The translations under genes were made by a program, and so were the position numbers. The notes under the pieces were generated by a model. That model worked only from the letters and a program-made list of their open reading frames with translations, searched no databases and was not told the origin of the DNA. From assembly GCA_030595905.1 (NCBI GenBank), contig JAUVLE010000001.1, positions 1-58,489 of the forward strand: 58,489 nucleotides of DNA. Direction: 5' to 3'. This DNA comes from Candidatus Cloacimonadota bacterium (GTDB taxonomy: Bacteria; Cloacimonadota; Cloacimonadia; Cloacimonadales; TCS61). Positions 8,935-18,490 of the stretch are shown here, in pieces. Each line of letters starts with the position of its first letter. Position 1 is the stretch's first letter.

Positions 8935-11220
8935 TTAAATACTAACTTTTATTTTTTTCGACATTATTTTCATTCCATTATAAAATATAATGAAAATAGC
9001 AATTATGAAAGCTATCCACATCGCTGAAGCAGAAGGTTGGATTGCAAATACGCTGACCTGGTAAAATAATGTTGAAATTAGCCAGGCGAGAAAAGTGAGA
9101 TAAAGGCTGGAAAAAATTGTCCACTTAAGATTTGTTTCGCGATAAATAACAGCAATTGCTGCAACACAGGGAACATAAATCAGAATGAACAGCAGGTAAG
9201 CAAAGGCGTTGTTTTTCCCTCCAAAGCGTGAACTCATTTCCGAGAAAGTTTGAGCATCGACTTCAAGTTCTTCTTCTACGATTTCCATATCGGAAGTTTC
9301 CACAGATAACCCCATCGGGTCAGCCGCAGTTTCTTCAAATCCTTTAAATCCTTCCGGAATTGCCTGGAACGCTTCGACTATTCCTCCCCAGAAATCAAAT
9401 TCTTCTTCTGCTTCCCTGGTTTCATCTAATTGTGAATATAATGCATCCAAAGTTCCCACAACTGCTTCTTTGGCGAAAATACCTGTAAAAAGACCAACTG
9501 TTGCCGGCCAATTATTGCTTGAAATTCCCATTGGTTTGAAGATCGGAGTAATACTTTTCCCGATACTGCTGAGTATTGAATGTTCCGAATCTTCATTTCC
9601 GAAGCTGCCATCCGTTCCAATAGAATTCAGGAAACTGAGAACGATAACCACGATGATGATCACTTTCCCAGCTCTTAGAAGGAATGTTTTCAATCTCTGC
9701 CAGGTGTGAAGCATAATTCCATTAATTGTAGGAATATGATAAGGAGGAAGCTCCATCACAAAAGTCGAGGTTTCTCCTTTGAGAATAGTTTTCTTAAATA
9801 TCAAGCCGGAAATAATAGCGAGAATAATTCCTATCGAATAGATGGTGAAAACTACAAGTCCGCCATTTCTCGGAAAAAAAACGCTGGCAAAAAGAATATA
9901 AACAGGCAGCCTTGCTCCGCAGGACATAAATGGATTTATAAGGATCGTCAGGATCCTGTCACGGTTATTTTCCAGCGTTCTGGTTGCCATAATTGCCGGC
10001 ACATTACAACCGAATCCAACCAGCATCGGAATAAATGCCTTTCCGGGAAGTCCGATAAAACGCATAAATCTATCCATCACAAAAGCAGCTCTGCTCATAT
10101 AACCGGAGTCTTCTAAAATGGAAAGAGAAAGGAACATAAAAAAAATGGGAGGAATGAAAGTGGCAACAGTTTGAATACCGCCACCGATACCTGCAGAGAA
10201 AAGAGTCACAAACCAGTTTGGTAAATTAAGCGAACTCAGAAGATTTCCCAGACCATCGACGAAGATGGTTCCCATAAAGATATCGAAAAAGTCTATGAAT
10301 GGTGCTCCCACATTGATTGTGAGCATAAACATCAGATACATAACACCAAAGAAAATCGGAATTCCAAGAAAGCGACTCAAAACAACTTTATCGATATTAT
10401 CGGACACTGTTTTTCTGATCTGGTCATGACGATGAACAACATCGCGGGATAATCCGTGAATGAAGCCATAACGTCCGTCTGCAACAATTATATCGATCTC
10501 ATCACCAACGTGTTTTTCAATTTTTGCACTTTCTAAGGAAATCAAATCTTCTAATTCATTGTTTGTTATCTGAATGGCAAGTTCGTCTGATTCCAGAAGT
10601 TTTATCGCAAGCCAACGAGGATCGACATTACTCTTTTCAGCAAAAGGAGTGACTTTTTCCACAATTCTTATTAATGCTTCTTCAATAACAGAATCGTATA
10701 AAACCCGGGTTTTAGATATCTCATGTTTCTCTGCAGCCATATTTATAGTGTCTTTAAGTTCTTCCAGACCTTGCTTTCTGCTTGCCACCATTGGAATTAC
10801 AGGACATCCGAGATGGGTTTCAAGATGCTCGACTTCTATGTGTATTTTTCGTTGTTTGGCAATATCCATCATATTCAAAGCGACCACAACCGGGATTTTC
10901 ATTTCCAGAAGCTGGGTAGTGAGGTAGAGGTTTCTTTCCAAGTTTGTTCCATCTACAATATTTACGACCAGGTCTGGTCTGTCCATTAAAATGTATTCAC
11001 GAGCAATCTTTTCATCTAAAGAATAGGCAGAAAAAGAGTAGATTCCCGGAAGATCGATGACTTCAATTTTATGGTCTTTATGCTTATATTCTCCCTCGAT
11101 TCGTTCTACAGTTACACCGGGCCAGTTTCCCACTCTTTGGGTTGAACCGGTAAGAGCATTAAAAAGCGTTGTTTTTCCGCAGTTTGGATTACCTGCTAAA
11201 GCAATAGTAATTTTTTTCAT
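8935..11220 (-). CDS. feoB: ferrous iron transporter FeoB
   Basis: 761 aa. N-terminal GTPase domain (GNPNCGKTTLFNALTG, DLPG) followed by the polytopic permease domain. Confidence 0.95.
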   Translation of the reverse strand: MKKITIALAGNPNCGKTTLFNALTGSTQRVGNWPGVTVERIEGEYKHKDHKIEVIDLPGIYSFSAYSLDEKIAREYILMDRPDLVVNIVDGTNLERNLYLTTQLLEMKIPVVVALNMMDIAKQRKIHIEVEHLETHLGCPVIPMVASRKQGLEELKDTINMAAEKHEISKTRVLYDSVIEEALIRIVEKVTPFAEKSNVDPRWLAIKLLESDELAIQITNNELEDLISLESAKIEKHVGDEIDIIVADGRYGFIHGLSRDVVHRHDQIRKTVSDNIDKVVLSRFLGIPIFFGVMYLMFMLTINVGAPFIDFFDIFMGTIFVDGLGNLLSSLNLPNWFVTLFSAGIGGGIQTVATFIPPIFFMFLSLSILEDSGYMSRAAFVMDRFMRFIGLPGKAFIPMLVGFGCNVPAIMATRTLENNRDRILTILINPFMSCGARLPVYILFASVFFPRNGGLVVFTIYSIGIILAIISGLIFKKTILKGETSTFVMELPPYHIPTINGIMLHTWQRLKTFLLRAGKVIIIVVIVLSFLNSIGTDGSFGNEDSEHSILSSIGKSITPIFKPMGISSNNWPATVGLFTGIFAKEAVVGTLDALYSQLDETREAEEEFDFWGGIVEAFQAIPEGFKGFEETAADPMGLSVETSDMEIVEEELEVDAQTFSEMSSRFGGKNNAFAYLLFILIYVPCVAAIAVIYRETNLKWTIFSSLYLTFLAWLISTLFYQVSVFAIQPSASAMWIAFIIAIFIIFYNGMKIMSKKIKVSI

Positions 11221-11447
11221 TAAATCACCTCCACTTCCAGAGCATCGGCTTCTGCTTTTCGCAAGGTCAGATTAAATCCTTTCAGCTTAATTTCGATTGG
11301 ATCGCCAAGTGGTGCTTTCCTGGTGATTGTAAATTCGGTTCCCCTGATCAAGCCCATTCTCAGAAGCTTTTCCCTGTAATGCCGGTCCTTTGCAGTATAA
11401 CCGGCTACCTTAACATTTGAACCGACTTCAATATCTTTTAATTTCAT
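11220..11447 (-). CDS. feoA: ferrous iron transport protein FeoA
   Basis: 75 aa with an SH3-like FeoA pattern (...LRMGLIRGTEFTITRKAPLGDPIEIKL...). The stop overlaps the feoB start. Confidence 0.9.
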   Translation of the reverse strand: MKLKDIEVGSNVKVAGYTAKDRHYREKLLRMGLIRGTEFTITRKAPLGDPIEIKLKGFNLTLRKAEADALEVEVI

Positions 11448-11468
11448 AACAACTCCTTTAATTTTATT

Positions 11469-11582
11469 TACCTTCCGAAGCTTTCTTTCACTTTTTCTTA
11501 TATTAAGATTCGGAAGGTTACAATGAGCTAAAACTTTCCGAATCTTAAATGTAAGTATTCCTTTGTGGGAAGCTTCGGAAAG
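11469..11582 (-). promoter_or_regulatory. feoA leader with four mutually complementary TTCCGAA/TTCGGAA segments
   Basis: Segments lie at 11469-11483, 11507-11520, 11534-11544 and 11567-11582. Possible pairings are 11470-79/11509-18 (10 bp), 11536-44/11507-15 (9 bp), 11534-42/11574-82 (9 bp) and 11473-83/11570-80 (11 bp). Confidence 0.55.
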
Positions 11583-11605
11583 TATACGATTTCTCTTAAC
11601 TTCAT
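11528..11605 (-). CDS. possible 25-aa leader peptide in the feoA 5' region
   Basis: AAGGAG-N6-ATG, translating MKLREIVYFPKLPTKEYLHLRFGKF*. It covers two of the four pairing segments. There is no conservation evidence. Confidence 0.25.
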   Translation of the reverse strand: MKLREIVYFPKLPTKEYLHLRFGKF

Positions 11606-11625
11606 AGTTTACTCCTTTGTTGATT

Positions 11626-11644
11626 GAATTTGATAATCATTCTC
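11626..11644. promoter_or_regulatory. Fur box upstream of feoAB
   Basis: GAATTTGATAATCATTCTC matches 15 of 19 positions of the GATAATGATAATCATTATC consensus. On the minus strand it overlaps a TTGAAT-N16-TATCAA promoter-like pair. Confidence 0.7.
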
Positions 11645-11671
11645 AATCCATATTCAATTTTTTTTGCTCTA

Positions 11672-12100
11672 TTATTTTTTACAATTATTGCAAATTCCCT
11701 TTGCGCCAATGTTAAATTCTCTTATTTTAAAATCGTGTTTCTTTGCTAATTTATTTAGAATGCTTTCTGCTTCTTTGCTTTCAATTTCGATTATTTTTCC
11801 ACATTTTTCACAGATAAGATGAAGATGCCTACTATGTCCGTATGTATGTTCATAATGATCTTTTGCCAGGCATCGCAGTGATTGCTTTATCAGACCGGAT
11901 TCAATAAGAAGTGGTATTGTTCGATAAATAGTAGCCCTGGAAACGTCTTTGTGTTTTTTTCGGATCTTGTCGTAAAGTCCATCAACGTTGAAATGTTCAT
12001 GAGTTGCAAACACAGTGTTCAGGATGATCTTCCGTGGTTTGGTCAGCTTTAAACCTTTGGAGATCAGGTATTTGTCAAACACAAAATTTTCGTTTCCCAT
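11672..12100 (-). CDS. fur: Fur-family metal-responsive transcriptional repressor
   Basis: 142 aa. Winged-helix N-terminus (TKPRKIILNTV...VSRATIYRTI), HxH and CxxC...CxxC metal sites (HLICEKCGK...CNNC). Confidence 0.85.
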   Translation of the reverse strand: MGNENFVFDKYLISKGLKLTKPRKIILNTVFATHEHFNVDGLYDKIRKKHKDVSRATIYRTIPLLIESGLIKQSLRCLAKDHYEHTYGHSRHLHLICEKCGKIIEIESKEAESILNKLAKKHDFKIREFNIGAKGICNNCKK

Positions 12101-12183: not shown

Positions 12184-12281
12184 AATACCAACAAGTTTGA
12201 ACAAGTAAAAAAAGGCAAATAGATATATTTATCTTTCAAAAAGTGCATTCTTACCTGAGATTTCCGAAACATTAACAAAAG

Positions 12282-12290
12282 TTAGCACTC
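12282..12290 (+). promoter_or_regulatory. orphan perfect CIRCE half-site
   Basis: TTAGCACTC, an exact left arm, with no matching right arm 9 nt downstream. It lies just upstream of the -35 element. Confidence 0.5.
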
Positions 12291-12301
12291 TGAGATTTAG
12301 T

Positions 12302-12329
12302 TTGACAGGTTTCCAAAAACAATTAAATT
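12302..12329 (+). promoter_or_regulatory. sigma-70-like promoter of the hrcA operon
   Basis: TTGACA (12302-12307), a 16-nt spacer, then TAAATT (12324-12329). The CIRCE element begins 10 nt downstream. Confidence 0.55.
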
Positions 12330-12338
12330 GTCTCTGTA

Positions 12339-12365
12339 TTAGCAGTCGGTATTTTTGAGTGCTAA
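12339..12365 (+). promoter_or_regulatory. CIRCE operator (HrcA binding site)
   Basis: TTAGCAGTC-ggtattttt-GAGTGCTAA has one mismatch to TTAGCACTC-N9-GAGTGCTAA. It overlaps the first codons of the track ORF, which supports the later hrcA start. Confidence 0.85.
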
Positions 12366-12382
12366 AGAAAAGGCGGTCGTTA

Positions 12383-13435
12383 ATGAAAAAAAATGAGATA
12401 CGGCAGGAAAAGGTTTTAGGGTATCTGGTGGAAGAATATATCCATTCGAAGGAACCTGTTTCTTCAAAATTGATATGTGAAAAATACATTAAGGATGCAA
12501 GTCCTGCAACTATCAGGATCGATCTGAATAAAATGGAAAAGAACGGGTTGATCTACCAACCTCACACTTCGGCAGGCAGGATTCCCAGCATTAAGGGTTA
12601 TAGGAAATACATTGAAATGATCTCGCCTACGATCGAAAAGACAGTTTATGAAAAATCAGAAATCCTTAGAGAAATACTGGTAAAGCATTATAAAGATACT
12701 CCTCTTTCTCTTCATTATATTATGCAGCTTTTAGCACGGGAAACAGACCAGTTGAGTTTTGTAGCCGAACCGGAAGTTTCCAACGGATATCTGGAAAAAC
12801 TTGATGTTTTCAAAATATCACAGGACAAACTTCTTTTTGTTGTAAGCTTGGATTCCGGACTGGATAAAACAGTGATCCTGAAATGCGATCATAATATAAC
12901 CGAGCAGCAGTTGAAGGCTATTGTGCGATATGCAAATGATGAATTCGTGGGTCATCGCATCTATGATATTCAGAATAGATACCTGGAAGAAACTTCTGAT
13001 AAAATATCAGAAGAAAATAGACTTCTCAAACTTTTTCTGGAAGAACTTCAAAATGCATTTACCGAGATAAGCAATTACTTTATTCATTTCGATGGAAATA
13101 TCAGTTTCCTCGAGCAGCCGGAGTTCAACGATAAAAGTTCGATCCTTACCTTTCTGGGATTTATTCAAAGGCAGGATCATCTGATCAATCTGATGCAGAA
13201 ACACGAAAGAGAGAAATCATGGACAATATTGATGGGAGAAGACCTCGGACAACTTGAACTAATGAATTATGCACTGATCTTTTCCAGATATGAGATATTC
13301 GGTATTCCCGGATACCTTGGAGTTCTGGGACCCATCAGGATGAATTATAGAAAGAATATTCCGATCATTAAGAACATTGCCGCAATCATTACAGATACAA
13401 CCAGGAAAGGGATGGTGGTACCAAAAAATGACTGA
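12383..13435 (+). CDS. hrcA: heat-inducible transcription repressor HrcA
   Basis: MKKNEIRQEKVLGYLVEEYIHSKEPVSSKLI... is a typical HrcA N-terminal wHTH. The length and the position before grpE-dnaK-dnaJ also fit. The start was moved to 12383, downstream of CIRCE. Confidence 0.9.
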   Translation: MKKNEIRQEKVLGYLVEEYIHSKEPVSSKLICEKYIKDASPATIRIDLNKMEKNGLIYQPHTSAGRIPSIKGYRKYIEMISPTIEKTVYEKSEILREILVKHYKDTPLSLHYIMQLLARETDQLSFVAEPEVSNGYLEKLDVFKISQDKLLFVVSLDSGLDKTVILKCDHNITEQQLKAIVRYANDEFVGHRIYDIQNRYLEETSDKISEENRLLKLFLEELQNAFTEISNYFIHFDGNISFLEQPEFNDKSSILTFLGFIQRQDHLINLMQKHEREKSWTILMGEDLGQLELMNYALIFSRYEIFGIPGYLGVLGPIRMNYRKNIPIIKNIAAIITDTTRKGMVVPKND

Positions 13436-13462
13436 TACAAAAAAAATAAAAAAGATAAAAAT

Positions 13463-13999
13463 ATGACCGAAGAAAAAAAGAGTGTGAAAAAGAAAAAACT
13501 TACCTTGAATGAAAAATACGAACAACTGCAAAAAGAATATGATGAATTGAAAGATAAAAGAATTCGTGTAATTGCGGAATTTGAAAATTTCAGAAAACGT
13601 TCATTCATAGAAAAAGTTAATTGGATCAAAAATGCCAATGAAAGGATTGTTCTGGATGTCTGTGATGTTCTGGATAATTTTGAACGTGCTCTTCATCCGG
13701 AAGTAGAAAAAAATCGAGAAACCTTTGAAAAAGGTGTTGAACTTATCTTTCAGCAGATAGAAAGTCTTCTTAAAAAAGAAGGCGTGCAAAAGATCGAAGC
13801 TTTGGAAAAGGAATTTAATCCTAATTTCCACGAAGCTCTGGCGCATATACCTTCTGAACTGGAAGAAAACAAAATAACTGCTGTTATCCAGAATGGTTAT
13901 ACGATGAATGAAAAAGTCATCAGACCTGCAAGGGTTGCAGTTTCAAATGGTGAAAAACCGGAGGAAATCAGCAACGAACAAAACGAACAAGAAAAGTAA
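13463..13999 (+). CDS. grpE: nucleotide exchange factor GrpE
   Basis: 178 aa. Coiled-coil N-terminus, then RV.AEFENFRKR...L.V.D.FERA and ...GYTMNEKVIRPARVAVS, the GrpE signature regions. Confidence 0.95.
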   Translation: MTEEKKSVKKKKLTLNEKYEQLQKEYDELKDKRIRVIAEFENFRKRSFIEKVNWIKNANERIVLDVCDVLDNFERALHPEVEKNRETFEKGVELIFQQIESLLKKEGVQKIEALEKEFNPNFHEALAHIPSELEENKITAVIQNGYTMNEKVIRPARVAVSNGEKPEEISNEQNEQEK

Positions 14000-14044
14000 C
14001 TTAAACATCTTGTTTTGAGAAATGGTATAATTTAGGAGAAAATT

Positions 14045-15103
14045 ATGAATGTAGAAAAGTTAAATTCATTAGCACTTAGTTTGGTTGAAGAGAATAATAA
14101 TCTTCATTACGTTAAACTTTTTAGTGATGTAACTAAAACACTTCAAAACATTGTTAATCAACCAAATCAACCCCAACACCAAACAAACCTTGCAACACAA
14201 TTAAAATCTCTACAAAAAGCACTTTCAAATTCTTTAGTAAATGATTTTAGTCCTGCTTGGTATCAAGTTTTAGTTGAACTTGAAATTGATGATATAATGG
14301 GTAATAAATTATCAAAGAAAATTAATGAAATTATACAGAAAAATCAAATTACTCCGGCACAAGCACATCAGGATCTGGTAAAAATATATCAAAAATTAAA
14401 CACGAAAATAACTGGATTTACAAATATAATTAATGGATTAAAAATTCTTGATTTTGGATTTGATGAACTTAAGGACAATGAATGTGAAATTGGAATCTTA
14501 ATTCCAAGAAAATATATTGAAAATGATTTGGGTAAATTTGGAAATGAGATTAAGGAATTAAACTTCATACTAAACAATTATTCTGAACTTATAATAGGCA
14601 AGAAAGAATCATTTCAGATTAGAAATTTATCAACAAGTGAACCTCTCATCACAGTTGCAACAATAACTGCGATTGCAGCAGGAATAGCAAAAACCATTGG
14701 ATGGCTGATAGACAATTACAAAAAACTATTAGAAATCAAACAGTTAAAGCAAAAGTTAAAAGAACAGGGACTGTCTAATGAAGAGTTAAAAGGAATAGAT
14801 AAACATAGCAATGATTTTATGGAAAAAGCGATTGATGATATTGTAAACAAAATGGCAAAAGAATATAGTGGAAATGGAGACAATGCAAGAAAAAATGAAT
14901 TGCTTAATGGAATTAGAATCTCATTAAATAAAATTGCAAATAGGATTGATAAAGGATTTAATTTCGAAGTTCGAATCCAAACAGACATAGACAAATCAAA
15001 AGCGGAAGATAAAGAAATAATTGATATAATTGAAGCTTCAAACTCACTTCAATTTATTAAATCGACTGGGGACTCAATTTTGAGTTTATCTGAAAAAAAA
15101 TAA
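14045..15103 (+). CDS. hypothetical protein inserted between grpE and dnaK
   Basis: 352 aa with its own RBS (taGGAGaaaattATG). Predicted mostly helical and rich in K, N, E and I, with one hydrophobic helix (PLITVATITAIAAGIAKTIGWLI). No motif I recognise. The DNA is visibly AT-richer than grpE and dnaK. Confidence 0.7.
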   Translation: MNVEKLNSLALSLVEENNNLHYVKLFSDVTKTLQNIVNQPNQPQHQTNLATQLKSLQKALSNSLVNDFSPAWYQVLVELEIDDIMGNKLSKKINEIIQKNQITPAQAHQDLVKIYQKLNTKITGFTNIINGLKILDFGFDELKDNECEIGILIPRKYIENDLGKFGNEIKELNFILNNYSELIIGKKESFQIRNLSTSEPLITVATITAIAAGIAKTIGWLIDNYKKLLEIKQLKQKLKEQGLSNEELKGIDKHSNDFMEKAIDDIVNKMAKEYSGNGDNARKNELLNGIRISLNKIANRIDKGFNFEVRIQTDIDKSKAEDKEIIDIIEASNSLQFIKSTGDSILSLSEKK

Positions 15104-15127
15104 AAATAAAATATCTCGGAGGTAAAA

Positions 15128-17107
15128 ATGGGAAAAATAATAGGAATTGATCTGGGAACTACAAATTCCTGTGTAGCAGTTATGGAAGGCGGGAAACCGG
15201 TAGTTATCCAAAATGCGGAAGGCAATCGAACAACTCCATCCGTAGTTGCATTTACGAAAGATAAGCAGAGATTGGTCGGACAGCTTGCCAAACGACAGGC
15301 TGTAACAAATCCGAAAAACACTATATCTTCTATCAAAAGGTTCATGGGACGTCAACTCAACGAAGTGGGTTCTGAAATTAAAAATGTAAACTATCAGATA
15401 AAAGGTGGAAAATCCGGTGAAGCAACTGTTCATGTTGATATCGAGAACAAAGACTTCTCACCACAGGAAATATCCGCAATGGTTCTAACCAAAATGAAAG
15501 AGACTGCAGAAGCTCATCTTGGTCAGAAAATTACAGAAGCAGTTATCACGATCCCAGCATATTTTAATGATGCTCAAAGACAGGCGACAAAAGATGCCGG
15601 GAAAATCGCAGGATTAGATGTGAAAAGGATAATCAACGAACCAACTGCTGCAGCTCTGGCTTATGGTCTGGAAAGCAAAAAAGAAGAGAAAGTGGCAGTT
15701 TATGACCTCGGTGGTGGAACTTTCGATATCTCTATCCTGGAAGTTGCAGAAGGTGTAGTGGAAGTTCTCTCCACAAACGGTGACACACATCTCGGAGGAG
15801 ATGACTTCGATAAAAAAGTAATGGATTGGATACTGGAAGAATTTAAAAAACAGGAAGGTGTTGATATATCTAATGATGCAATGGCAATGCAAAGAATAAA
15901 AGAAGCTGCAGAAAAAGCAAAGGTGGAACTTTCCGGCACTCAAACCACAAACATCAATCTTCCCTTCATCACTGCCGATGCTTCCGGTCCGAAACACTTG
16001 AACCTCGATCTCACACGTTCTTTATTCAACAGAATGACAAGCGATCTGGTAGATCGTTCGATCGAGCCATGTAAACTTGCTCTGAAAGATGCAAAACTCA
16101 GTCCCAAAGACATCGATGAAATTCTACTGGTTGGCGGAAGTACAAGAATTCCGGCAGTTGTGGAAGCTGTAGAAAAATTCTTTGGCAAAAAACCGAACAA
16201 GGGTGTAAATCCCGATGAAGTGGTTGCTGTTGGTGCTGCAATTCAGGGTGGTATCCTTGCCGGAGATGAAAATCTTAATGATATTCTTCTTCTCGATGTA
16301 ACTCCTCTATCTCTGGGAATCGAAACTCTGGGTGCAGTGATGACAACTCTGATAGAGCGAAATACGACCATTCCAACCAAAAAGAGCCAGGTCTTCTCTA
16401 CAGCAGCCGATAATCAACCTGCTGTATCTATCGTTGTACTTCAGGGTGAACGTTCGATGGCAGCAGATAATCGACGGCTTGGGAACTTTGAACTTACCGG
16501 TATCCCGGCTGCTCCACGTGGTATTCCACAAATAGAAGTTACCTTCGATATCGACGCAAATGGAATCCTGCATGTTCATGCACAGGATAAAGGAACCGGA
16601 AAAGAACAATCAATAAAAATTGAAAGAACCGGAACTCTGGATGAAGCGGAAATCGACAGAATGGTAAAAGATGCAGAAGCGCATGCAGAAGAAGATAAAA
16701 AGCAAAAAGAAGGCATACAAGCCCGCAACGAACTGGATACTTTGATATTTTCTACAGAAAAAAGCCTGGAAGAACATGGCGATAAACTTTCCGATGACGA
16801 AAAGAAAACAGTTGAAGAAGCCATTAAAGATGCAAAAGCAAAAATGGAAGAGTTGAATAAAAAATCCAGTTCTAAAGAAGAATATGAAGCTGTGCGTGAT
16901 GAACTTGCCAAGAAGGCTCAAAAAATAGGTGAGATCATCTATGCGGAAATGCAGAAACAACAGGCAGCTCAAGGCGGAGCAGCAGGACCAGACATGAAAG
17001 ATGCAGATTTTGATCCCGGTAAAATGGGCGGACAACAAAAGCAGGAAGAGCCAAAAAAAGAGGGTCCGGTCGATGCGGATTTCGAAGTGGTGGATGAGGA
17101 TAAATAA
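15128..17107 (+). CDS. dnaK: molecular chaperone DnaK (Hsp70)
   Basis: 659 aa with [17 protein letters not shown] and other Hsp70 signatures. GGAGG RBS. Confidence 0.98.
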
Positions 17108-17111
17108 AAAG

Positions 17112-17332: not shown

Positions 17333-18490
17333 ATGGCAAAAAGAGATTATTACGAGGTTCTGGGAGTTCAGAAAAACGCTACTGATTCTGAGATAAAAAA
17401 GTCTTATCGCAAACTGGCGATGAAGTTTCATCCTGATAAAAACAAAGACAACAAAGCAGCAGAAGAAAAGTTCAAAGAAGCTTCGGAAGCTTATGAAGTT
17501 CTGAGCGATTCAGATAAACGAAGGAAGTATGATCAATTTGGTCATGCCGGGTTGGAAGGTGCTTTTGGCGGTCATGGGTTTACCTGGGATAATTTCACAC
17601 ATGCCAGTGACTTCTCTGATATTTTTGGTAGTGGTGGACTGGGAAGCATATTCGAAAATCTTTTCGGTGGAAGTTTCGGAGGTTTTGGCAGAAGCTCTAG
17701 ACCCAGCAATCGTGGGGAAGACTTGCAGATTTCACTATCACTTTCGCTGGAAGAGATTGCAAAAGGCATCGATAAAAAGATAAAGATAAATGTGAAAGAT
17801 GCCTGCGATAAATGTAACGGTTCCGGCTCGGCAGATGGACAGGTTCAAACCTGCAGCCAGTGTCACGGTTCGGGACAGGTAAGGCAGTTAACCCGTTCTC
17901 TTTTTGGTCAGATGCAGACTATTGTAACCTGTCCTTCCTGTAATGGACAAGGAAAGATAATTAAGAACAGGTGCCCAAAATGCGGTGGTGAGGGCAGGAT
18001 GTCAAAAACTAAAACGATCAGCATCAATATACCTGCCGGTGTCTCCGAAGGACAGTATATCCGTCTTCGAGGACAGGGAAACATCGGTAAACGCAACGGC
18101 TCTAATGGTGACATTCTTGTTCTTATCCACGAGAAGGAACACGATATCTTTGAAAGACAGGATGCAGACCTTATCTGTGAATTTCCGATCAGTTTTTCTC
18201 AAGCTGCTCTCGGCTCTGAAATACTTTGTCCAACGCTTTCCGGAAAAGTTAAAATAAAAATTCCTGCCGGTACTCAATCGGGAAAAGTTTTCCGATTACG
18301 TTCGCAAGGTTTACCGCATGTGAATAGCGTTTATCACGGAGATCTGTATGTAAAAATATTGATAATAACTCCCACGAGATTAAATTCCCAAGAAAAAGAA
18401 TTATTCAAGGAATTAGGTAAATTCGATTCAGAGAAAAAACTGAAGCCGGGGAAAGGATTTTTCAGTAAATTTAAAGAGTTTTTTGTATAG
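17333..18490 (+). CDS. dnaJ: molecular chaperone DnaJ
   Basis: 385 aa. J domain (DYYEVLGV...HPDKN), G/F-rich linker, and four CxxCxGxG zinc-finger repeats. Confidence 0.97.

Follow-up and report, generated by a model that had tools for sequence, protein, structure and literature searches.

Why does a heat-shock operon in the Cloacimonadota carry an additional gene between grpE and dnaK? This question is raised by a DNA stretch of 58,489 nt from Candidatus Cloacimonadota bacterium (assembly GCA_030595905.1, contig JAUVLE010000001.1, positions 1-58,489), called the window below, in which an open reading frame (ORF) of 352 amino acids (14045-15103) fills the gap between the two chaperone genes. 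We use 'family X', or simply X, as a working name for the protein family of this ORF, and L-numbers for the comparison loci. A preliminary description had taken the gene for an orphan, either a horizontally acquired passenger exploiting a stress promoter or a lineage-specific co-factor of DnaK. Our analyses support the passenger and sharpen it: with a probability of about 0.72, the window copy is a genome-inserted integron gene cassette that has lost its attC site and is now read from the heat-shock promoter.

The gene is not an orphan. A word-indexed search returned 246 full-length relatives of 355-375 amino acids with 37-71% identity, all annotated as hypothetical, from Sulfurimonas, Leptospira, Electrothrix, Glassbacteria, Bacteroidota, Kiritimatiellia, Saprospiraceae and Melioribacteraceae, and phmmer, run exhaustively, put the family at 1,505 or more clusters (50% identity, E<=1e-3) spread over many phyla, 304 of them below 1e-30. 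Family members are marked by the motifs NQITPA, ECEIGxLIPR, YKxLLEIRKL, RKNEL, SLNKIANRIDxGFNxEVR and PILxLPE. Neither the window protein nor the family profile had a significant match in Pfam, PADLOC, PHROGs, NCBIfam or the PDB sequences, and at E<=10 PADLOC-DB returned 0 families for the window protein. Judged by these searches, family X is large and unnamed, and has no Pfam model. Two similarities, one over 40 residues to a TFIIA-gamma-like helix motif (E about 0.009), the other to the LB099 family (17 bits, cutoff 200), were treated as chance or local resemblance. No relatives were found in IMG/VR, GenBank phages (INPHARED) or PLSDB plasmids, and the family thus does not qualify as phage or plasmid cargo.

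The mode of travel became apparent from the surroundings of the gene in other genomes. Genomic contexts of X homologues vary between genomes, and near-identical X proteins occur in different contexts. Clustering the neighbours in 85 X loci gave no recurrent neighbour gene, the best cluster being drawn from 5 of the 85 loci and containing a tyrosine recombinase; a two-gene system with a conserved partner was rejected on this result. When the 60 nt preceding the start codons were aligned, a motif recurred 15-45 nt 5' of the ATG, in the form (C/T)GTTGGA(G/T), CGTTAGGC or CGTTAAAT, and a complementary (C/A)TCCAAC-AA lies 2-4 nt 3' of the X stop codon, followed by a palindrome. The two boxes are the integron attC core sites R' (GTTRRRY) and R'' (RYYYAAC). 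Where the final base of the upstream box changes, so does the initial base of the downstream box, GTTGGAG pairing with CTCCAAC and GTTGGAT with ATCCAAC. Such covariation is expected of a gene that moves about as a cassette circle opened between G and TT.

These boxes are more frequent than in shuffled sequence. A GTTRRRN box within 45 nt upstream of X was present in 25 of 73 loci (7.7 in shuffles), and the stop codon carried an NYYYAAC box in 16 of 73 (3.4 in shuffles); both boxes occurred at one gene in 10 of 73 (0.44 in shuffles). Perfectly complementary GTTNNNN/NNNNAAC pairs surround X in 14 of 72 loci, compared with 0.12 in shuffles and 0.91 when flanks were paired across loci. Hairpins of attC architecture, 64-131 nt long, begin 0-8 nt after the X stop codon in L095, L096, L099, L116, L134, L137, L147, L152 and others, and in L102 the same repeat of about 125 nt flanks X on both sides. 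A strict attC regular expression and a generic hairpin scanner under-called the sites or did no better than shuffles, and arrays were instead called by box complementarity and a repeat finder.

Whole arrays and integrases complete the picture. In Leptospira koniambonensis (L009, GCA_051162145.1), 17 attC copies, each with a single ORF, form an array, and X is among these ORFs. In a Sulfurimonas locus (L007), X occupies the first cassette position, and its neighbour, divergent and about 300 nt upstream, is a bona fide integron integrase (TIGR02249, 359 bits against a cutoff of 265). Fragments of the integrase IntI lie near X in five further loci (L152, L134, L148, L159 and L111), and toxin-antitoxin modules, typical array companions, adjoin it in L011 and L180. 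Complementary boundary boxes, attC hairpins, arrays, integrase association and the lack of a recurrent neighbour together identify family X, at the level of sequence, as a cassette-borne gene of sedentary chromosomal integrons in many phyla. The Leptospira array (L009:1-17068) is itself a sedentary chromosomal integron with at least 17 copies of an attC repeat of about 130-150 nt, and its cassettes include HNH, OGG, CsgG/FlgO-like, DUF6985, DUF2971 and PIN proteins.

The window copy departs from this pattern at its 3' end. Members of the closest subfamily end in ...GAAAAGAAAAAATAA and are followed, 4 nt on, by the attC R'' box GCACAAC (CTATGCACAAC...). The window ORF ends in ...GAAAAAAAATAA and runs directly into host sequence shared with the sister genome L013, to which homology resumes at 15095. 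No attC or R'' (YYYAAC) box was found in the 24 nt between its stop codon and the dnaK ATG. No integron integrase was found in the window either, tblastn with the L007 IntI giving nothing better than E=0.6, and a crude hairpin scan of the window for an attC array gave no excess over shuffles. As its own attC is absent downstream, the window copy is, so far as the locus can be read, an ex-cassette that is no longer mobilisable. On the 5' side, a candidate cassette boundary, GTTTTGA, has an offset of -33 from the ATG that compares with -34 for the boxes of the closest homologues (GTTGTGC in L094, GTTGGCC in L001), although its TTG is not RRR.

We then asked whether the gene belongs to the operon in this phylum. 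Using the GrpE protein, 57 Cloacimonadota loci were retrieved, 55 of which contain both grpE and dnaK and are informative. None of the 55, including L013, has an X relative between the two genes, where the gap usually measures tens to about 200 nt. X was therefore rejected as a conserved member of the operon. In three loci from another Cloacimonadota clade (L065, L067 and L068), 1.8-2.4 kb separate grpE from dnaK; the slot is therefore not inviolable in the phylum and has accepted insertions more than once. The cargo in L068 (6439-8774) consists of two tandem flavodoxin-like reductase paralogues (194 and 195 amino acids) and an iron-containing alcohol dehydrogenase (384 amino acids), and no hrcA lies upstream.

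The closest genome, L013, shares 93% DNA identity and 95-96% protein identity with the window across the operon. In blastn, window positions 12209-13968 align to L013 17-1768 and positions 15095-17110 to L013 1764-3793. The 1,126 bp in between are present in the window only. The window GrpE tail (EEISNEQNEQEK*) is similar to that of the more distant L014 (...KEISKEQNEQNKQNKK...; KEISKEQNEQNK...). The L013 tail is shortened to KKIKK*, and its stop codon coincides with the stop region of the X ORF. The 93%-identical sister thus appears to have deleted X together with the grpE tail. In this scenario the insertion would be older than the split between the window lineage and L013, and L013 would later have dropped X and the last grpE codons in a single 1,126-bp deletion between short A-rich repeats. 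Loss is favoured because the window tail is of the ancestral type and that of L013 is truncated; the alternative requires two events with coinciding ends.

How might the cassette have reached this position? IntI is known to insert cassettes at 5'-GWT-3' genome sites (attG), with no genomic bias beyond GWT and the sparing of essential genes, and promoterless cassettes inserted in this way need a resident promoter nearby to be expressed (Loot et al., bioRxiv 10.1101/2022.09.11.507474). According to the same study, cassette excision can be imprecise and delete adjacent DNA, and attC sites are proposed to disappear readily through replication slippage, leaving the cassette domesticated (bioRxiv 10.1101/2022.09.11.507474). 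We propose that an integron integrase inserted a circular X cassette at a G|TT position in the genome (attC x attG) in the orientation of the operon, and that the folded attC was then deleted, with a breakpoint in the A-run at the last X codons. This deletion would have immobilised the cassette and restored the tight spacing to dnaK. The window copy would then fit the 'domesticated' end state predicted to follow attC loss.

Once in place, X would be transcribed by read-through from the CIRCE/HrcA-controlled promoter, because no plus-strand terminator-like site was found between grpE and dnaK in a scan of the window and X is co-oriented with the operon. The promoter and operator named in the preliminary description are borne out: the promoter-like site matches 10 of 12 consensus positions, and the CIRCE pattern, with one mismatch, occurred in 0 of 100 shuffles and is found again in L013. 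The gene's own Shine-Dalgarno sequence and its spacing, exactly 45 nt on the grpE side and 24 nt on the dnaK side, also stand as described. X may thus be translated from its own AGGAG, and a TGgTATAAT element in its leader may add some promoter activity of its own. Each time HrcA repression is relieved, the protein would be produced along with the Hsp70 machinery. The leader itself has some likeness (GGTATAAT..GGAG..ATTATG) to L014-type dnaK leaders; descent from an ancestral dnaK leader was dropped as an explanation, since a purine-rich AAGGAG-type leader is common to most family X members, in unrelated hosts as well.

Several points weigh against this reconstruction. The window has no attC, canonical GTTRRRY box or integrase, and insertion by an integrase is drawn from the family and cannot be read at the locus. 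Another route, for example illegitimate recombination after transformation, would give the same end state. Clean cassette boxes occur in only about 20-35% of X loci, the others being degenerate, on short contigs or possibly also ectopic. The order of events, ancestral presence and then loss in L013, depends on one sister genome and on low-complexity A-rich junctions. Finally, transcription of X from the CIRCE promoter is something that we infer.

The preliminary description also held the gene to be AT-richer than both neighbours and its product to be rich in K, N, E and I, and both statements are accurate. The GC content of the ORF is 0.278, and 0.181 at third codon positions (GC3), compared with 0.34-0.42 and 0.29-0.40, respectively, for hrcA, grpE, dnaK and dnaJ; the four residues together account for 41.5% of the protein. 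We nonetheless rejected low GC as proof that the gene arrived recently, because in every host examined, including a lineage in which it is vertically inherited (L135/L165), X is richer in AT than its flanks, and the shift is thus a family-wide trait.

The kind of element is already known; the protein family is unnamed and its fold unmatched. Like other integron gene cassettes, members of family X consist of a single promoterless ORF with a short leader, a G|TTRRRY site upstream and an attC hairpin at the stop codon; they are found in co-oriented arrays with toxin-antitoxin modules or as the first cassette next to IntI, are relocated between near relatives and have no recognisable domains. The window copy differs in having no attC and in its distance from integrases and arrays. 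Additional lineage-specific genes in dnaK operons are also known, such as DafA in Thermus. Like DafA and the L068 redox genes, the window copy is embedded between core chaperone genes and presumably co-transcribed; unlike them, it is not conserved in its own phylum, is compositionally foreign, belongs to a mobile cassette family and gives no sign of aiding DnaK.

Another parallel is with SALINs and other genome-inserted cassettes (bioRxiv 10.1101/2022.09.11.507474). The window copy is likewise isolated outside an integron, adjoins a candidate G|TT site and has a close, co-oriented resident promoter, and the deletion in L013 is similar to the imprecise loss reported in that study. Retention of a single attC is part of the definition of a SALIN, however, so the window copy is not one, and it lies inside a core heat-shock operon of an uncultured phylum rather than in the genome of laboratory E. 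coli. Spread by attC x attG recombination has been shown in the laboratory, and attC loss with fixation of the gene has only been predicted (bioRxiv 10.1101/2022.09.11.507474). The window locus would be a natural example of that predicted end state, within an essential and tightly regulated operon, and L013 would record the reverse step.

AlphaFold2 with a 61-sequence alignment gave a confident model of the window protein (pLDDT 89, pTM 0.81). The model is mainly helical and not, as had been predicted, all-helical: an N-terminal helical region is followed by an alpha/beta part with a predicted four-stranded sheet (residues 147-152, 192-196, 201-206 and 306-311). Foldseek searches of the model found no match below E=0.07 in the PDB or BFVD, and the fold thus seems to have no recognisable relative in either database. 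A release-factor-like fold was rejected, RF1/RF2 being the top PDB matches at E 0.07-0.3 with a TM-score of about 0.13, and the hhalign probability against a release factor being 0.1%. The invariant charged or polar residues are T103, E148, R155, S196, Y225, E230, E285, D302, E308 and R310. In the family alignment, a variable charged linker (in the region of residues 312-352) leads to an invariant L-x-L-x-E at the extreme C-terminus (L346, L348 and E350), and residues 341-350 have a pLDDT of about 85 despite having no secondary structure. This suggests that the C-terminal tail docks back onto the protein or onto a partner. Taken together, the invariant acidic, basic and hydroxyl residues and the docked C-terminal motif suggest an enzyme or a regulated binding protein rather than a structural coiled coil.

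Our tentative guess, held well below even odds, is that X is a self-contained, single-protein conflict or anti-phage effector whose production has become tied to proteotoxic stress in the window lineage, and not a core component of the chaperone system. At least one third of tested cassettes of unknown function gave phage resistance, many of them without a recognisable domain (Kieffer et al., bioRxiv 10.1101/2024.07.02.601719). X resembles these cassettes, termed BRiCs, in being a compact single gene that lacks recognisable domains and occasionally sits amid defence genes; it has no sequence or fold similarity to a described BRiC or a PADLOC family and is related to them by category only. About a tenth of 146 pooled immediate neighbours of X match defence models. 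Against the defence guess stand the lack of a PADLOC match for X and the minority share of defence genes among its neighbours, which may simply be other cassettes. In any event, a very large family can now be recognised as cassette-borne, and it is a concrete candidate for cassette-based function screens. Among individual loci, L122 (7156-13518) has a defence-island-like setting, in which the genes flanking X encode an M35/M48-like peptidase, an OLD-family AAA_15 and TOPRIM nuclease, an HNH_3 protein and an M61 peptidase, with a phage tail-collar-domain protein and dnaK further downstream.

Searching the 85 X loci with the chaperone proteins of the window brought out other X genes close to Hsp70 genes. 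In L135 and L165, which represent one high-GC lineage (identities of 89% for DnaK, 85% for X and 86% for GroEL), X starts 30-36 nt after the dnaK stop codon, ahead of groES-groEL, with a GC3 of 0.42 against about 0.8 for the host. The dN/dS ratio is 0.074 for X, 0.116 for dnaK and 0.181 for groEL. X is under strong purifying selection here and forms a second, independent, stably inherited dnaK-linked copy; the domesticated copy in this lineage is therefore taken to be functional. No CIRCE was found in this lineage. In L158, X is followed 195 nt on by an Hsp70 substrate-binding domain (SBD; E=2e-29) fused to the predicted pPIWI-associated nuclease pP_pnuc_1 (PF18165, E=2e-19), and in L122 dnaK lies 4 kb from X. 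The dnaK, X, groES and groEL genes are co-oriented in both members of the high-GC lineage (L135:3034-8189 and L165:8018-14041), where something other than recent arrival keeps the GC content of X low.

The main alternative to a conflict or defence effector is thus a role coupled to Hsp70. In its general form, X would be a client, adaptor, regulator or 'guard' of the DnaK SBD, and its position in the operon would reflect this partnership and not merely the promoter. Three independent lineages (the window, L135/L165 and L158) have X immediately beside an Hsp70-domain gene, and in one of them the arrangement has been kept across the divergence given above. With the window left out for ascertainment, 2 immediate adjacencies were counted in about 128 neighbour slots against an expected 0.06-0.13 (rough Poisson P about 0.002-0.008, before any correction for promoters), and the attG insertion data give no genomic bias that would favour dnaK (bioRxiv 10.1101/2022.09.11.507474). 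The invariant hydrophobic C-terminal motif on its flexible tail and the recruitment of Hsp70 homologues into conflict systems (PMC11090510, PMC7159879) would also suit such a role, as would the nearby dnaK of L122. Nevertheless, about 95% of family X loci have no Hsp70 gene nearby, and the nearest relatives of each dnaK-linked copy sit in unrelated contexts away from dnaK. The other loci of the SBD-nuclease family have no X either (L173-L178), on which ground X was rejected as its regular partner. The lineage-specific DnaK co-factor of the preliminary description is not supported as stated, given that 55 Cloacimonadota loci operate the operon without X and the sister seems to have discarded it; only the weaker link through L135/L165 and L158 remains. 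No co-chaperone domain (J-domain with HPD, GrpE fold) was matched in Pfam or NCBIfam, and the HPD tripeptide is absent from the window protein. Moreover, promoterless cassettes that survive outside integrons need a strong resident promoter, which by itself enriches for dnaK-like sites and shrinks the statistical surprise; selection for expression only, or chance, might account for the recurrent adjacency. We therefore find the adjacency suggestive, not decisive, and a working partnership with Hsp70 unlikely. The narrower proposal that X is an Hsp70-coupled conflict protein, which binds the DnaK SBD or is held in check by it, seems to us distinctly unlikely. It would explain why independent insertions have been kept next to dnaK in two phyla and, in a third lineage, next to an Hsp70-SBD-nuclease fusion, and, if true, would mean a mobile immune or stress effector wired into the main chaperone system both genetically (through HrcA/CIRCE) and physically. 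The repeated placement by Hsp70-domain genes is a testable lead and a real loose end.

Two further readings fare less well than either of these. The preliminary description had envisaged a membrane effector, a toxin or abortive-infection protein with one transmembrane helix and a coiled-coil tail, on a stress promoter. A moderately hydrophobic stretch of 19 residues around residue 201 is indeed conserved (Kyte-Doolittle mean >=1.6 in 54 of 61 family members, with a best value of 1.68 in the window protein), about a third of phage-resistance cassettes contain transmembrane helices (bioRxiv 10.1101/2024.07.02.601719), and some neighbours of X are defence genes (the OLD-family nuclease and HNH protein of L122; matches to ThsB-TIR, DRT and restriction-modification models). 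Hydropathy by itself is borderline, however, and AlphaFold2 models the segment as a strand (201-206) and a helix (208-226) packed inside the fold with a pLDDT of about 90. In most family members the segment carries 3-5 charged residues, and the model contains no long coiled coil; the protein thus looks soluble and alpha/beta. A ClyA/Hbl-type pore former, prompted by the position of the hydrophobic stretch, was rejected, as no pore-former or ClyA-like fold was among the top 50 PDB structure matches. Neither a PADLOC match, a relative in the phage collections nor, in the 85 X loci, a cognate antitoxin or partner was found, and a constitutively toxic protein would be hard to retain in an essential operon under purifying selection. 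We consider a membrane-inserted toxin very unlikely. It is more improbable still that X is an inert, decaying insert, recently acquired, without function for the host and on its way out. Its loss from L013, its composition far from that of the host and its absence from all other sampled Cloacimonadota would agree with decay. On the other side, the window gene is full length, aligns end to end with its relatives, keeps all 16 of the residues that are invariant across the family alignment and is preceded by a good Shine-Dalgarno sequence at the correct spacing. The independent dnaK-linked copy of L135/L165 is under strong purifying selection, and low GC, as a family trait, is by itself no sign of recent arrival.

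The features of the window on which the above rests are collected in Table 1.

Table 1 Features of the hrcA-grpE-X-dnaK-dnaJ region (window coordinates).
Feature	Position	Strand	Basis and remarks
Promoter-like site, TTGACA-16-TAAATT	12302..12329	+	Consensus scan, 10/12 matches; directly 5' of CIRCE
CIRCE operator, TTAGCAGTC-N9-GAGTGCTAA, predicted HrcA binding site	12339..12365	+	Pattern search, 1 mismatch; overlaps the hrcA start
hrcA	12359..13435	+	ORF list; 95% amino acid identity to L013; syntenic in 50+ Cloacimonadota loci
grpE	13463..13999	+	C-terminal tail ...EEISNEQNEQEK*, the ancestral form; tail shortened in L013
Segment present in the window, absent from L013	13969..15094	+	1,126 bp, comprising grpE tail, spacer and nearly the whole X ORF; blastn; ends in short A-rich repeats
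Candidate 5' cassette boundary, GTTTTGA	14012..14018	+	G|TT (GWT-type), 33 nt before the ATG; degenerate against GTTRRRY; putative assignment
Extended -10-like element in X leader, TGgTATAAT	14023..14031	+	Scan, TAAACA-18-TATAAT with upstream TG; consensus match only
Shine-Dalgarno sequence of X, AGGAG	14034..14038	+	6 nt 5' of the ATG; read from the sequence
Family X gene	14045..15103	+	352 amino acids, ATG start; intact; all 16 family-invariant residues kept; ORF list and family alignment
Spacer between X and dnaK, 24 nt	15104..15127	+	Carries the dnaK Shine-Dalgarno sequence GGAGG (15118-15122); host sequence common to L013; no attC
dnaK	15128..17107	+	ORF list; comparison with Cloacimonadota loci
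dnaJ	17333..18490	+	ORF list; comparison with Cloacimonadota loci

Further observations concern the surroundings of the operon and the nuclease family of L158. A second CIRCE-like half-site (TTAGCACTC and then TGAGATTTAG) is present at 12283-12301, just 5' of the -35 hexamer and separate from the full CIRCE. Divergent from the hrcA operon, on the minus strand at 8935-12100, are genes for FeoB (761 amino acids), FeoA (75 amino acids) and a Fur-family regulator (142 amino acids), and this feo/Fur unit and the hrcA operon have in common an AT-rich control region of about 260 nt.

The fusion protein beside X in L158 (2231-3469) belongs to a sizeable family of about 410 amino acids, also seen in L173 (6001-7239) and L175 (6001-7224), that joins an Hsp70 SBD without the ATPase domain to the predicted PF18165 nuclease. 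Relatives carry other C-terminal domains, for example PLD-like PF13091. In L173 and L174 the upstream partner of the SBD-nuclease is a 491-amino-acid HATPase_c_3 protein, with MqsR toxin and Schlafen/AlbA_2 genes nearby. This family has the look of a conflict system in which a chaperone peptide-binding domain serves as the sensor.

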